A stretch of 20,000 nt of DNA from Acidimicrobiia bacterium (lineage in GTDB: Bacteria > Actinomycetota > Acidimicrobiia > Spongiisociales > JAENVV01). The stretch spans positions 50,247 through 70,246 of the forward strand of contig JBFGJH010000010.1 in NCBI GenBank assembly GCA_041577335.1, in the 5' to 3' direction. The notes below the pieces were generated by a model. That model was given only the letters and a program-made list of their open reading frames with translations, did not search any database and was not told the DNA's origin. The translations under genes and the position numbers were made by a program. This document shows positions 1,436 to 3,768 of the stretch, piece by piece; the stretch's first letter is position 1; every line of letters begins with the position of its first letter.

Positions 1436-2227
1436 ATGATGGGAGCCCCTGAGCCTCTGCGCGAACCGCCGCCCCTGCCGGGTGCCGACCAACCGATGGT
1501 GTGGCGCCTCTGGCACTTCGCCGTGGCGTTTCTGGGCGGGTTGCTCACCGCCAACGTGGCGTTTGGGTTGCTTGCAACCACGACGGCAGACGGTTTGATC
1601 GACCTCGATTCGGTGACTGCCAACCAGCTGTTTGGGATCGTGATTCCAGCTCAGCATGCCGGGACCCTCGCCGTCGTTGCGATGATCGTATTGGCCAAGC
1701 GGGAGTCCTTTGCGTCCGCTCTTGGCTTCGATCTCGACATCAGGCACATTTGGTGGGTAGGGGTCGGGGCAGGTGTCGCGATCGTGGTGAGTTTGCTGAC
1801 GATCCCACTCGCTTCTTGGCTCGATGTCCAGGACAACCCGCAGCGTGTGGTCGAACAATTTGGTGACGTTGCATCCGGCCTGCCGCTACTGGCTGCCGTG
1901 CTGAGCCTCGTGGTTCTCACGCCGATCACCGAGGAGATCCTCTATCGCGGCGTCCTCCAACGAGCAGTCGGCCGTTGGCTGGCAGCCGTTCCCATGGTTG
2001 CGGTGACGAGCATCATTTGGGGCCTCGCCCATCTCCTGGATCCAGCGGATACCGACACGGTGTGGTGGTCGCAAGCCTTGATCACATTTGTTCCCATAAC
2101 CATCTTCGGCGTGATCGCCGCAACGGCCACCGTCCTGGCGAAGGGTCGGCTCGGAAGAGCGGTGTTTCTCCACGGCGGTTGGAACCTCCTCGGCGTGATC
2201 GCCCTGATCGGGGCCCAAATGGCATAG
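1436..2227 (+). CDS. CPBP-family (CAAX protease/Abi, Rce1-like) intramembrane glutamic endopeptidase
   Basis: Multiple hydrophobic helices with motifs EEILYRG (EExxxR), WGLAH (FxxxH-like) and HGGWN (HxxxN). Start is 1436 or 1439. Confidence 0.88.
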   Translation: MMGAPEPLREPPPLPGADQPMVWRLWHFAVAFLGGLLTANVAFGLLATTTADGLIDLDSVTANQLFGIVIPAQHAGTLAVVAMIVLAKRESFASALGFDLDIRHIWWVGVGAGVAIVVSLLTIPLASWLDVQDNPQRVVEQFGDVASGLPLLAAVLSLVVLTPITEEILYRGVLQRAVGRWLAAVPMVAVTSIIWGLAHLLDPADTDTVWWSQALITFVPITIFGVIAATATVLAKGRLGRAVFLHGGWNLLGVIALIGAQMA

Positions 2228-2260
2228 CCGACCCGAGCAGGCTCGGGTCGGATTTCTGTT
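2228..2260 (+). terminator. Perfect 11-bp hairpin after the CPBP stop; possible terminator and first hairpin of the structured element
   Basis: CCGACCCGAGC-AG-GCTCGGGTCGG (2228-2251) followed by ATTTCTGTT. Confidence 0.55.
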
Positions 2261-2503
2261 CGAGCGGCTCTCCAGCCGCACTCTTCTTGGTCGGTGCCGG
2301 GCGCAGGTCCCGGCACCTCCATGTAAGGGGACGGCGGAGCCTTTTCCCCTTACCAACCCCCTACGGCGGTGTTCAGGCGAGCGCGCTCGGATGGGGAGTT
2401 TGAGGGACGGCTCCGCCGGCCCCTCAATGTGGGAGGTACGGCGACCTGCGCGCCGTACCGACAGGGTGAGTGCCGCCGCAGGGCGGCTCCTCCAGGCGCT
2501 CGG

Positions 2504-2551
2504 TCGAATCCTGATTCGACCGAAACCGAATCCGATCGAATCCTGATTCGA
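2504..2551. repeat. 16-nt direct repeat TCGAATCCTGATTCGA x2 (period 32), each the core of a perfect 11-bp hairpin
   Basis: Copies at 2504-2519 and 2536-2551, within TCGGTCGAATC-CT-GATTCGACCGA and CCGATCGAATC-CT-GATTCGATCGG. Confidence 0.85.
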
Positions 2552-2570
2552 TCGGCTGCGGCAGCATGTC

Positions 2571-2579
2571 TGGTACCCT
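2571..2579 (+). promoter_or_regulatory. Possible extended -10 promoter for guaB3-guaA
   Basis: TG-G-TACCCT matches TGnTAnnnT, upstream of the SD GGAGG (2596-2600). Confidence 0.35.
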
Positions 2580-2610
2580 CGCGGCCCTCAGGAGCGGAGG
2601 AAGACTCAGG

Positions 2611-3768
2611 GTGGAAATCGATATCGGTATTGGTAAATCGGCTCGTCGAGCGTTTGGCTTTGACGACATTGCGATCGTTCCCAGCAGACGGACACGCGAC
2701 CCAGATGACGTGGACATCAGCTGGCAGCTGGACGGTTTTCGATTCGAGTTGCCAATGCTCGGTTCGGCCATGGACTCGGCTATCTCTCCGAGCACGGCGA
2801 TCGAGATCAGCCGGCTTGGCGGGCTGGGCGTCCTCAACCTCGAGGGCCTCTGGTCCCGCTATGAGGATCCCGATCAGTTCCTCATCGAGATCGCCGAGCT
2901 TTCCGCCGAAAAGGCGACGCGCCGGATGCAGGAGATCTACCTCGAGCCAATCGACCCGGACCTGATGACGCAACGGGTCCGTGAGATGAAGAAGGCCGGC
3001 ATCGTCGCAGCTGGGAGCCTTACACCTCAGCACGTCGAGCGCTTTGGGTCGTCCGTTCGCGACGCGGGCCTCGACATCCTGGTGATCCAGGGAACGGTCG
3101 TATCCGCCGAACACGTATCGACCAGGACGGAGCCACTCGACCTCCGAGACTTCATCGGTGGGTTCGAGTTGCCCGTGATCGTTGGCGGCTGCGCCTCGTA
3201 TTCCACGGCTCTGCATCTCATGCGCACGGGAGCCGTCGGTGTTCTCGTCGGTGTCGGCCCCGGCGCGGCCTGCACCACTCGAGGTGTCCTCGGCGTGGGG
3301 GTCCCGCAAGCGACGGCGATTGCCGATGCTGCGGGAGCGCGAATCAGGCACCTCGACGAGACTGGGCGGTACGTCCACGTAATCGCCGACGGCGGAATGC
3401 GAACCGGCGGCGATGTCTCGAAAGCAATTGCGTGTGGTGCCGATGCCGTGATGATCGGGTCGCCGTTGGCCTCCGCCACGGAGGCTCCCGGCCGGGGCTC
3501 ACACTGGGGCATGGCGACGTTTCATCCAACGCTCCCCCGAGGAGCGCGGGTTCAGACAGGTGATCTGGGAACACTCCAAGAGATCCTCGTTGGCCCCGCC
3601 CACGAGAACGATGGCCGCCGAAACCTGTTTGGCGGTCTCCGAGCGTCAATGGCCACGACGGGATACGCAGACCTGAAGGAATTTCAAAAGGCCGAGGTCA
3701 TGATCGCCCCGTCGCTGCAGACGGAAGGCAAGTCGCTCCAGCGCAGCCAGCGCGTCGGTATGGGATGA
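2611..3768 (+). CDS. guaB3: GuaB3-family IMP dehydrogenase (no CBS domains), catalytic Cys retained
   Basis: GTG start at 2611 after GGAGG, giving 385 aa. Has the GuaB3 N-terminal signature ([15 protein letters not shown]), active loop [23 protein letters not shown] and WGMA. No CBS insertion. Confidence 0.92.

Follow-up and report, generated by a model that had tools for sequence, protein, structure and literature searches.

What is the 330-nt, hairpin-rich structure that lies between a CPBP gene and a guaB3-type gene in G000, a 3.4-Mb Acidimicrobiia MAG? An earlier note on the window, the whole 20,000-nt stretch of DNA analysed here, had proposed either a novel ncRNA or an inverted doublet of a structured mobile repeat. 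The structure consists of two back-to-back copies of a ~145-nt, four-hairpin repeat that is present in about 45 copies in the genome. As a repeat it is new but of a familiar bacterial kind, like REP, TRIT and BOX, and it is not a one-off regulatory RNA. In the reading we prefer, with a probability of roughly 0.6, the two opposed copies were acquired independently and belong to a dispersed, non-coding, mobile or selfish-like gene-end repeat with a terminator-like first hairpin.

Two opposed copies of a four-hairpin unit

Each unit reads, in order, H0, a T-rich linker, H1, H2, H3 and a C-rich tail (Table 1). A search of the window for repeats and inverted repeats recovered every hairpin named in the earlier note, at the same positions, as well as the long-range matches between the arms (2290-2320 with 2432-2462, 81%; 2262-2283 with 2468-2489, 77%; 2326-2341 with 2409-2424, 94%; 2226-2254 with 2529-2557, 72%). 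One assignment had to be changed. H0 at 2228-2251 had been paired with 2532-2555, but its in-register partner is the inner hairpin at 2500-2523, and the right arm has two H0-type hairpins. The outer of these is a direct repeat of 2501-2522 (91% identical, offset 32 nt), with a weaker copy (68% identical) between the two. The build is modular and this extra hairpin is optional, being absent from a strain variant in which the contig of run X7 joins 2524 to 2568 and skips 2525-2567.

Table 1. Coordinates of the repeat pair and its neighbours in the window
Feature	Position	Strand	Remarks
CPBP gene (Rce1/CPBP-like membrane protease)	1436..2227	+	Pfam PF02517, E 2.4e-15
TAG stop of CPBP gene	2225-2227	+	1 nt ahead of left repeat copy
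Left repeat copy	2228..2361	+	same orientation as upstream CPBP gene
Left H0	2228-2238/2241-2251	+	11 bp, 100% complementary
T-rich tail after left H0	2252-2261	+	
Left H1	2264-2279	+	
Left H2	2293-2301/2309-2317	+	9 bp, 100% complementary
Left H3	2323-2331/2345-2353	+	9 bp, 100% complementary
C-rich tail of left copy	up to 2361	+	
Left copy, covariance-model match	C10:52463-52622 = window 2217-2376	+	144.9 bits
Spacer between copies	2362..2392	.	31 nt; includes 12-nt palindrome 2378-2389 (by eye)
Right repeat copy	2393..2523	-	inverted, tail to tail with left copy
C-rich tail of right copy	2393-2399	-	
Right H3'	2400-2427	-	
Right H2'	2435-2443/2451-2459	-	9 bp, 100% complementary
Right H1'	2472-2487	-	
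Right H0'	2500-2523	-	
Right copy, covariance-model match	C10:52623-52780 (-) = window 2377-2534	-	141.3 bits
Extra H0-type hairpin module	2532..2555	-	terminator-like on - strand (terminator scan)
guaB3-type IMP-dehydrogenase-like gene	2566..3768	+	Pfam PF00478

Between themselves the two arms share 75% identity over 83 nt. The right arm shares 84% with a copy on contig C85, and the left arm 80% with one on C18. Each is nearer to copies elsewhere than to its partner, and in this sense the arms are independent. The complementary loops to which the earlier note drew attention are present but are no special feature, because the arms are one element in opposite orientations. The compensated stem differences between the arms are equally real, and exist because the arms belong to one repeat family and have diverged.

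Folding of 340 nt gave -205 kcal/mol on the + strand, a value matched by none of 100 shuffles (z -7.97); the - strand gave -199.5 kcal/mol (z -9.33). The minimum-energy fold is a single long imperfect hairpin that joins both arms, rather than a row of local hairpins; local folding and arm-to-arm folding are both possible. Mechanical ORFs do overlap the region, but none is conserved among the copies. A small reverse-strand ORF starting in the H1-H2 linker was rejected, since its ATG is found in about half of the copies and neither peptides nor frames are conserved. The right copy is antisense to guaB3, whose true start is probably the GTG at 2611, with a GGAGGA ahead of it at 2596-2601. Relatives align from residue 10-17 on, and the orthologue in the congener G001 begins at the equivalent ATG. 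The repeat pair adjoins the purine genes guaB3-guaA.

A dispersed and patchy family

BLAST found 63 matches across the genome, nhmmer 48 and a covariance model 44, and the element is thus not unique. The 5′ end is intact in 46 of the 48 nhmmer matches. Eight of the 48 are no more than 300 nt away from where a contig stops, a zone that makes up 2.3% of the genome, and the true copy number is therefore probably higher. Tail-to-tail doublets number two among the 48 (the pair in the window and C85 20-124/137-255); singlets predominate. Near-identical copies are absent from the genome, the best pair being 84% identical, so nothing points to recent transposition. The alignment showed no terminal inverted repeats: its 5′ end, which is T-rich and leads into H0, and its C-rich 3′ end are not complementary. 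Nor was a repeated flank seen in 28 copies, although their ends are not base-mapped and a 2-3-nt target duplication is possible.

The family was detected in 6 of 61 relatives and, in a sample of 151 genomes spanning the class, in 4. Searches of plasmid, phage and viral collections gave no match, and a pattern scan of metagenomes returned just three contigs, with scores like those of this species' own copies. The CPBP-guaB3 spacer of G001 is ~64 nt long and has no element. The same is true of its orthologues of ychF, the C72 gene, the lyase gene and tRNA-Ser(tga), while the C41 and C18b loci have kept the element in G001. At three of the four empty orthologous sites compared (ychF, the C72 gene and CPBP) the stop codon is TGA; filled sites read TAG. 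No match was found upstream of guaB3 at 80 other Acidimicrobiia loci, and the only significant match among the guaB3 loci, in L068, is ~2.4 kb downstream of the gene.

The novel ncRNA finds no support here: some 45 copies are dispersed, neither the same spacer in G001 nor the region upstream of guaB3 at the 80 other loci has the element, and the right arm is antisense to guaB3. Rfam 15 gave no match at gathering threshold in the 20-kb window, and the best by E-value within 2150-2650 (0.42) reached 18.8 bits against a threshold of 48.5.

Many copies begin at gene ends

Twenty-one of 46 copies begin 0-11 nt past a co-oriented stop codon, a position occupied by 1.2% of random intergenic positions (p 5e-28). 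TAG accounts for 17 of these 21 stops, compared with a background of 32% (p 7e-6). In other genomes 13 of 25 copies start likewise just past a co-oriented stop, and three more are behind tRNA-Glu. The hairpin is thus narrowly placed at stop codons, as in TRIT. In this genome a copy stands behind three of the four tRNA-Ser genes and behind none of the 43 other tRNAs; the two G174 copies that follow tRNA-Ser both finish with a T run after the C-rich tail. A search with filters off for an ancestral home behind tRNA-Ser(tga) found no element in the trailers of 29 relatives. By eye, AG or AGG precedes H0 by a few bases in most copies, at a variable distance.

Other copies, like the right arm, are in non-3′UTR contexts. 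Many occupy the short gaps that separate co-oriented genes, and a strong terminator would have polar effects there.

Terminator-like features were found at H0 in particular. A simple scan of the window called three sites (H0, H1 and the extra H0 on the - strand) against 0.2 expected. At least four T within 8 nt past H0 were present in 15 of 28 copies, with a background of 6.7%, and at least five in 8 of 28; 13 of the 28 are missing a T-rich tail straight after H0.

Stems covary while loops are kept

The stems covary strongly, in accord with the covariation that the earlier note had read from the two arms. In an alignment of 28 full copies, pairing holds in 88.4% of cells, and both sides vary in 27 of the 37 pairs; none of 500 shuffles reached these values, and slid controls gave 33-48%. 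The 25 copies of other genomes gave 92.7% pairing, with 26 of 37 pairs varying on both sides. Loops and linkers are conserved across genera and the stems change.

G-U and A-C mismatches in stems numbered 28 and 26 in alignment A1 and 6 and 14 in A2, or 34 and 40 combined. This neutral-looking pattern fits copies that are not individually selected as a one-strand RNA. H0-H2 nevertheless pair at 89-97% although the copies are only ~70-84% identical, which exceeds simple neutral decay; individual copies are therefore under some constraint, or subject to hairpin-internal correction. A C(UUCG)G tetraloop in H1 was considered and rejected: the loop is CUUC closed by C-G, and H1 is therefore uninformative on strand.

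Search for a partner enzyme

The Y1/RAYT transposase (PF01797) was found in none of 61 genomes, six element carriers included, whereas the same search was positive in 6 of 14 known genomes used as a control. TnpB (PF07282) gave no match in G000 or the other element-bearing genomes. IS110 was absent from G000 and elsewhere uncorrelated with the element. The 90.75% completeness of the MAG bounds these absences of a transposase in G000, and IS elements are often missed in assemblies.

Several other candidates were set aside. A DUF559 nuclease gene at C45:583-771 has a different, 65-nt repeat behind it and no match to the model. For a small GIY-YIG (Ssn-type) nuclease the only frames were of 547-696 aa, which from their size are taken as UvrC-like. 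By eye, H1 lacks the GNRA loop of a group II intron domain V and forms too few pairs, and the several separate hairpins are in no cassette array, unlike an integron attC. A tRNA-derived SINE was likewise dropped, ARAGORN having called no tRNA at any copy.

Comparison with known repeats

REP/BIME elements of E. coli are described, in the accessible parts of two reports, as dispersed extragenic hairpins, mostly in 3′UTRs or within operons and at strain-variable locations, for which a dual terminator and mRNA-stabiliser role is proposed (bioRxiv 10.64898/2026.03.23.713779; PMC12306157). The Acidimicrobiia repeat is also dispersed, hairpin-forming and extragenic. It differs in that REPs are single short palindromes of alternating orientation tied to a RAYT gene, whereas here four different hairpins form one polar unit of fixed order in genomes where no RAYT was detected. 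A REP or REPIN consists of one short palindrome whose 5′ tetranucleotide is fixed and conserved, and in the REPIN-RAYT system (Bertels & Rainey; Nunvar et al.) inverted doublets of a hairpin repeat are reportedly the predominant, replicating unit. The pair in the window resembles such a doublet, but doublets are exceptional here, the two arms of this pair are different subfamily members, the unit is ~145 nt with four hairpins, and the AG or AGG ahead of H0 stands at a variable distance. The earlier note had expected many dispersed single-arm copies without transcription to mark an ordinary REP-type repeat, and as regards copy number this is what was found.

Structured intergenic repeats of 100-150 nt include BOX of Streptococcus pneumoniae and the MITE-like Correia, ERIC and RUP elements. 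BOX is modular, with optional modules, and is not known to have a transposase; MITE-type elements are bounded by terminal inverted repeats and flanked by target duplications. The optional extra hairpin recalls BOX, but phylum and sequence are different, and neither terminal inverted repeats nor target duplications were seen. "Inverted doublet of a structured mobile repeat" thus stands as a description, while the REPIN and MITE models fail their defining tests.

TRIT of Mycobacterium is, in the accessible text of Gardner et al. 2011, a conserved hairpin restricted to that genus, with 147 copies that keep very closely to one place with respect to the stop codon. It is a single hairpin, palindromic and for the most part bidirectional, whose centre falls ~8 nt within the coding sequence, and it is regarded as a terminator, perhaps one that depends on an additional factor (PMC3152330). 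Compared by description and not by sequence, both are lineage-restricted actinobacterial hairpins narrowly placed at stop codons, but here only H0 has that role, it follows the stop by 0-11 nt, and three more conserved hairpins come after it. Several adjacent hairpins near a stop codon also recall the hairpin-cluster intrinsic terminators of Gupta & Pal 2021, which as far as the accessible part of that paper goes act as one unit within 80 nt of the stop and do not require a U tract (PMC8355165). Those clusters are not homologous repeats, whereas one conserved dispersed family is seen here.

Interpretation and alternatives

Under our preferred reading the repeat would be a non-autonomous mobile or selfish element that settles with fixed polarity behind stop codons, with a bias to TAG, and behind tRNA 3′ ends. 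H0 with its T-rich tail would most likely be a weak intrinsic terminator and/or a hairpin that protects the 3′ end of the upstream transcript, like REP/BIME and TRIT, and H1-H3 may be the part kept for propagation by a putative enzyme. The left copy would serve, or at least follow, the CPBP gene. The right copy would be an antisense orphan, and its position ahead of the guaB3 promoter and Shine-Dalgarno region would be the reason why it is tolerated; we infer that the pair is independent of guaB3 regulation.

Alternatively, the unit could be mainly a functional RNA, a transcribed 3′ trailer combining a terminator with an exonuclease block, selected at gene ends and spread only secondarily. Pairing that stays high despite 16-30% divergence, the T-rich stretch that follows H0 in 15 of 28 copies, the T runs of the G174 tRNA-Ser copies and the two loci that retain the element in both congeners all speak for it, as do the accessible accounts of hairpin clusters as termination units (PMC8355165) and of REP325 as a dual terminator and stabiliser (bioRxiv 10.64898/2026.03.23.713779). 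We nonetheless consider it unlikely, since G-U is not favoured over A-C, the right arm and other copies are outside 3′UTRs, most relatives are without the element (orthologous gene ends in the congener included), and H1-H3 would seldom be transcribed if H0 terminates.

A more specific form of the mobile-element reading is quite unlikely as it stands. Here a polar, gene-end-seeking element would be moved by an enzyme outside the RAYT, IS200/IS605, IS110 and DDE-MITE routes, integrating at or within the stop codon and bringing its own 5′ AG. This would explain TAG at filled versus TGA at three of four empty sites, and also the repeated landing behind tRNA-Ser in two different families of the order. 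If true, the element would act as a portable "stop plus terminator" cassette, rewriting the ends of genes.

It is improbable that the constraint is on DNA alone, with the hairpins as single-strand or cruciform sites for a protein (a nuclease or recombinase mover, or a nucleoid- or topoisomerase-type binder as proposed for BIMEs) and no role as RNA. Changes are nearly all from one Watson-Crick pair to another with G-U and A-C equally rare, loops and linkers are kept across genera while stems vary, and the extra hairpin is optional, all as such sites would have it; but no partner gene was found, housekeeping genes adjoin the copies, the repeat behind the DUF559 nuclease gene is a different one, and strict polarity relative to the upstream gene is more easily explained via transcription or translation. 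We hold a palindromic element derived from REPIN/RAYT or IS200/IS605, with its transposase gene unassembled, to be very improbable. Its hairpins without visible terminal inverted repeats or target duplication, its fixed orientation beside a short AG/AGG motif (by eye) and the two tail-to-tail doublets would suit this origin, against which stand the missing PF01797 with a positive control, the lack of TnpB in any element-bearing genome, the predominance of singlets and a stop/AG-to-H0 distance that ranges from 0 to 11 nt. That the structure is a riboswitch, leader or small RNA gene specific to this locus and in control of guaB3-guaA, as its strong folding and its place directly upstream of purine genes might suggest, is scarcely tenable given ~45 copies behind unrelated genes, none in the G001 spacer or upstream of guaB3 at 80 loci, no Rfam match, and an antisense copy next to guaB3.

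The locus thus reveals no new regulatory RNA for purine genes. If our preferred reading is correct, uncultured Acidimicrobiia have a structured, polar repeat by which dozens of ordinary genes are altered at their 3′ ends (ychF, transporters, tRNA-Ser, the spacer ahead of guaB3-guaA) without any transposase known to move such repeats. Entered in RNA and repeat libraries, the family would then keep MAG annotation from flagging its copies as candidate riboswitches, and its at least 45 natural variants with compensating stems would form a test set for terminator and stabiliser rules in high-G+C actinobacteria. TAG bias, tRNA-Ser preference and the missing partner enzyme would together pose a puzzle on how hairpin repeats spread. 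The genes adjoining clustered copies are ordinary, and encode an EamA transporter, a beta-eliminating lyase, an ABC permease and YchF.

A dispersed, polar repeat of four hairpins

The earlier note had read the two arms as either a novel ncRNA or an inverted doublet of a structured mobile repeat (REPIN/MITE-like), and had proposed counting them across the genome. A search of the source MAG (G000; 3.38 Mb, 128 contigs, 63% G+C) with 340 nt from the window gave 63 matches on many contigs, mostly one arm each; iterated nhmmer converged on 48 matches, with the 5′ end intact in 46, and a covariance model (R1) found 44 copies. The arms thus belong to a dispersed repeat family, and the ncRNA reading found no support. 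Eight of the 48 nhmmer matches lie within 300 nt of contig ends, which make up 2.3% of the genome, so the copy count in the assembly is probably too low. The unit, shown in the table below, was defined from an alignment of 28 full copies, on which R1 was also built. Extra sequence separates H0 from H1 in six copies: a whole hairpin in C37a, C72, C50a and C42, the first part of a hairpin in C18c and a single base in C85b.

The repeat search recovered each previously listed hairpin of the window at its coordinates. Folding of the 340 nt gave z scores of −7.97 and −9.33 for the two strands, with none of 100 shuffles (dinucleotide) as good in either case; the minimum-energy fold pairs both arms as one long imperfect hairpin in place of the local hairpins, which form the alternative fold. 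The arms share 75% identity over 83 nt, less than the right arm shares with C85:125-259 (84%) or the left arm with C18:49065-49193 (80%). As each is nearer to copies elsewhere, we take the two arms to have inserted separately, as members of different subfamilies, which is why "compensatory" differences are visible within one locus. In this modified form the inverted doublet of a structured repeat stands; its assignment to REPINs or MITEs does not.

Features of the window and make-up of the repeat unit
Feature	Window position	Description
CPBP/Rce1-like gene	1436-2227	Stop TAG; upstream flank of doublet region
guaB3-type IMPDH-like gene, then guaA		Downstream flank of doublet region
Start of guaB3-type gene	2611	Probably this GTG rather than ATG 2566
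GGAGGA	2596-2601	Before GTG 2611
Palindrome between arms	2378-2389	AGCGAGCG-type motif; perfect, 12 nt
Right-arm H0-type hairpin, inner	2500-2523	In-register counterpart of left H0
Right-arm H0-type hairpin, extra	2532-2555	
Segment differing in run X7	2524-2568	Contains extra H0; 43 nt swapped for two bases
Unit, 5′ end		T-rich lead-in
H0		10–11 bp; loop centred on CAGG; then T-rich linker
H1		6 bp; CUUC loop; then conserved GCTCAT-type linker
H2		9 bp or more; three loop types
H3		Outer stem and inner GGC/GCC stem; GGA loop
Unit, 3′ end		C-rich tail

Many copies begin at gene ends

With gene ends taken from a crude GC3-based gene call that misses some genes, 21 of 46 copies in G000 start 0–11 nt past a co-oriented stop codon, compared with 1.2% of random intergenic positions (p = 5e-28). 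Further copies fall outside the 21 because the stop was missed by the gene call, another copy precedes them, or the stop lies inside the copy; at C18:4164 and C40:13095 the stop of the upstream gene falls within H0 or its linker. The stop is TAG in 17 of the 21, versus 32% genome-wide (p = 7e-6). Three copies in G000 follow tRNA genes, all tRNA-Ser, so that 3/4 tRNA-Ser genes are followed by a copy versus 0/43 other tRNAs. Among 25 copies of other genomes, 13 directly follow a long high-GC3 frame that ends in TAG (8), TGA (4) or TAA (1), and three lie behind tRNA-Glu. No G000 copy was found with its H3/tail end against a gene end. Most copies are flanked by co-oriented gene pairs, with the whole spacer filled in some, and the genes next to copies are unremarkable (EamA transporter, beta-eliminating lyase, ABC permease, YchF).

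A tRNA-Ser(gga)/tRNA-Ser(tga) cluster in G000 (locus L186, C37:15600-16700) is a hot spot, where two full copies and a partial one lie within 900 nt together with loose fragments of the H0 and extra-hairpin types. In the two contigs of G174, a genome from another family, copies were found only behind tRNA-Ser(cga) and tRNA-Ser(tga) (locus L184, 238-397 and 1501-1660), and a fragment precedes tRNA-Ser(gct).

Our preferred reading, to which we assign a probability of about 0.58, is that a non-autonomous mobile repeat goes in directly behind gene ends with fixed polarity; H0 and its T-rich tail would then serve as a weak intrinsic terminator, as a 3′ hairpin shielding the upstream transcript, or as both, and H1–H3 would be retained for propagation. 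The terminator part is suggested by sequence patterns: a simple scan of the window picks out H0, H1 and, on the − strand, the extra H0 (3 sites versus 0.2 expected), and at least 4 T occur in the 8 nt past H0 in 15/28 copies, versus a background of 6.7%, the other 13/28 having fewer T there.

Stems covary as Watson–Crick pairs

Covariation among homologues, which the earlier note had proposed as a test, was found in both sets of copies. Across the 28 G000 copies standard pairs fill 88.4% of cells, compared with 74.5% after shuffling and 33–48% with slid partners; double-sided changes occur in 27/37 pairs, and none of 500 shuffles reached any of five measures. Pairing is 97% in H0 and H1, 89% in H2 and 74% in H3, where the MAFFT alignment is poor. 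The 25 distinct copies of other genomes, in an alignment that leans to the model, are 92.7% paired with double changes in 26/37 pairs. G-U and A-C mismatches number 28 and 26 in the G000 copies, and 6 and 14 in the copies of other genomes. Since wobble is not favoured, the structure is kept as Watson–Crick pairs on both strands; these counts give no support for selection on a one-strand RNA, and are compatible with DNA-level hairpins or with mismatches that are recent neutral hits.

We consider an RNA trailer kept by selection an unlikely explanation of the unit. In its favour, pairing is high although copies have diverged, and both G174 copies behind tRNA-Ser finish with a T run past the C-rich tail; against it, wobble pairs show no preference and presence is patchy across genomes. 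That the unit is a DNA-level protein site, with which the wobble pattern is also compatible, seems less probable still.

Partner enzymes and known repeats

The RAYT/IS200-type HUH transposase that the earlier note had suggested looking for did not appear: PF01797 (Y1/RAYT) was found in 0/61 genomes. TnpB was absent from the element-bearing genomes, the sole match over the cut-off being in unpublished G036, and IS110 was absent from G000 and elsewhere uncorrelated with the element. An RAYT or IS200/IS605 element whose transposase went unassembled is accordingly a very doubtful explanation, and membership in REPIN-RAYT, MITE or IS200/IS605-derived families was ruled out, each by failure of a defining test. 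A DUF559 nuclease was rejected as partner, as its G000 gene carries a different repeat: on C45 (L172, 783-918) the DUF559-like frame is followed by a tandem pair of 65-nt units that share 88% identity, both contain a perfect G+C-rich hairpin and are unrelated to the H0–H3 family. In G001, a congener, a 50-nt inverted repeat (C39; L171, 721-770 and 1710-1759; 74% complementary) brackets a DUF559-containing frame.

BOX elements are modular and, as far as known, transposase-less, and the unit recalls them. The unit would resemble REP/BIME in working as a 3′UTR terminator/stabiliser (bioRxiv 10.64898/2026.03.23.713779), and would work in a similar way to the mycobacterial TRIT hairpin, which has 147 copies narrowly positioned at stops (PMC3152330). 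Compared with the hairpin-cluster terminators of Gupta & Pal, it resembles a dispersed form whose members are homologous. Searches of full texts yielded no published account of the family, nor anything on Acidimicrobiia gene-end repeats; Acidimicrobium ferrooxidans appears in the RepRanger paper only as a table entry.

Turnover between genomes

R1, with the best 48 candidates scored per genome, placed the family in 6/61 genomes: G000, G001 with 4 copies, and every one of the four g14 genomes, a genus in another family, with 5–11 copies. It found no element in 20 other genomes of G000's family. In a class-wide sample, with the best 19 candidates scored per genome, the element was present in 4/151 genomes (G000, G001, G098 and G174), which belong to a single order. 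These tallies take in unpublished G025 and G036, both negative for the element. Copies in g14 keep the loops, linkers and H1 and have a different H0 stem.

Orthologous sites indicate that copies were gained or lost between the congeners and a few inherited. The ychF gene (its G000 product full length against PDB 1jal) ends in TGA without an element in G001, and the same end codon in G000 is TAG with an element 4 nt on; the C72 gene likewise has TGA and an empty site in G001, TAG and a filled site in G000. The G001 CPBP–guaB3 spacer is ~64 nt, lacks the element and follows a TGA. The lyase gene has TAG in both genomes and an empty G001 site, the C41 gene has TAG in both and both sites filled, and the C18b gene has TAG in G000, TGA in G001 and an element at both. 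TAG is thus usual at filled sites, and TGA occurs at 3/4 empty orthologous sites. A guaB3 leader or riboswitch is highly improbable, being contradicted by the dispersed copies, the element-free G001 spacer and the absence of the element upstream of guaB3 in all of 80 loci.

The tRNA-Ser(tga) trailer carries no element in G001 or 28 other relatives. In G001 (L189, 1590-1700) it has its own long inverted repeat where the element would be; G000 has kept the right half of this repeat, downstream of its inserted copies.

The doublet at guaB3

The left copy occupies the usual place, behind CPBP, and the right copy, an orphan, lies antisense. In DNA contigs of three studies (runs X1, X6 and X7) guaB3 is preceded by the right arm at least; the X7 difference is a between-strain indel polymorphism of one hairpin module. 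The closest relatives of the guaB3-type gene are all titled Acidimicrobiia/Actinomycetota MAGs. From ATG 2566, relatives align only from residue 10–17 on, and the G001 orthologue begins at an ATG equivalent to GTG 2611. The short stretch between the right copy and guaB3, with TACCCT and GGAGGA, is conserved with G001, and the right copy may be tolerated because it sits upstream of it. GC-rich AGCGAGCG-type motifs also lie tens of bases past the C-rich tail of copies on C32, C18, C45 and C43, and may be a further optional module.
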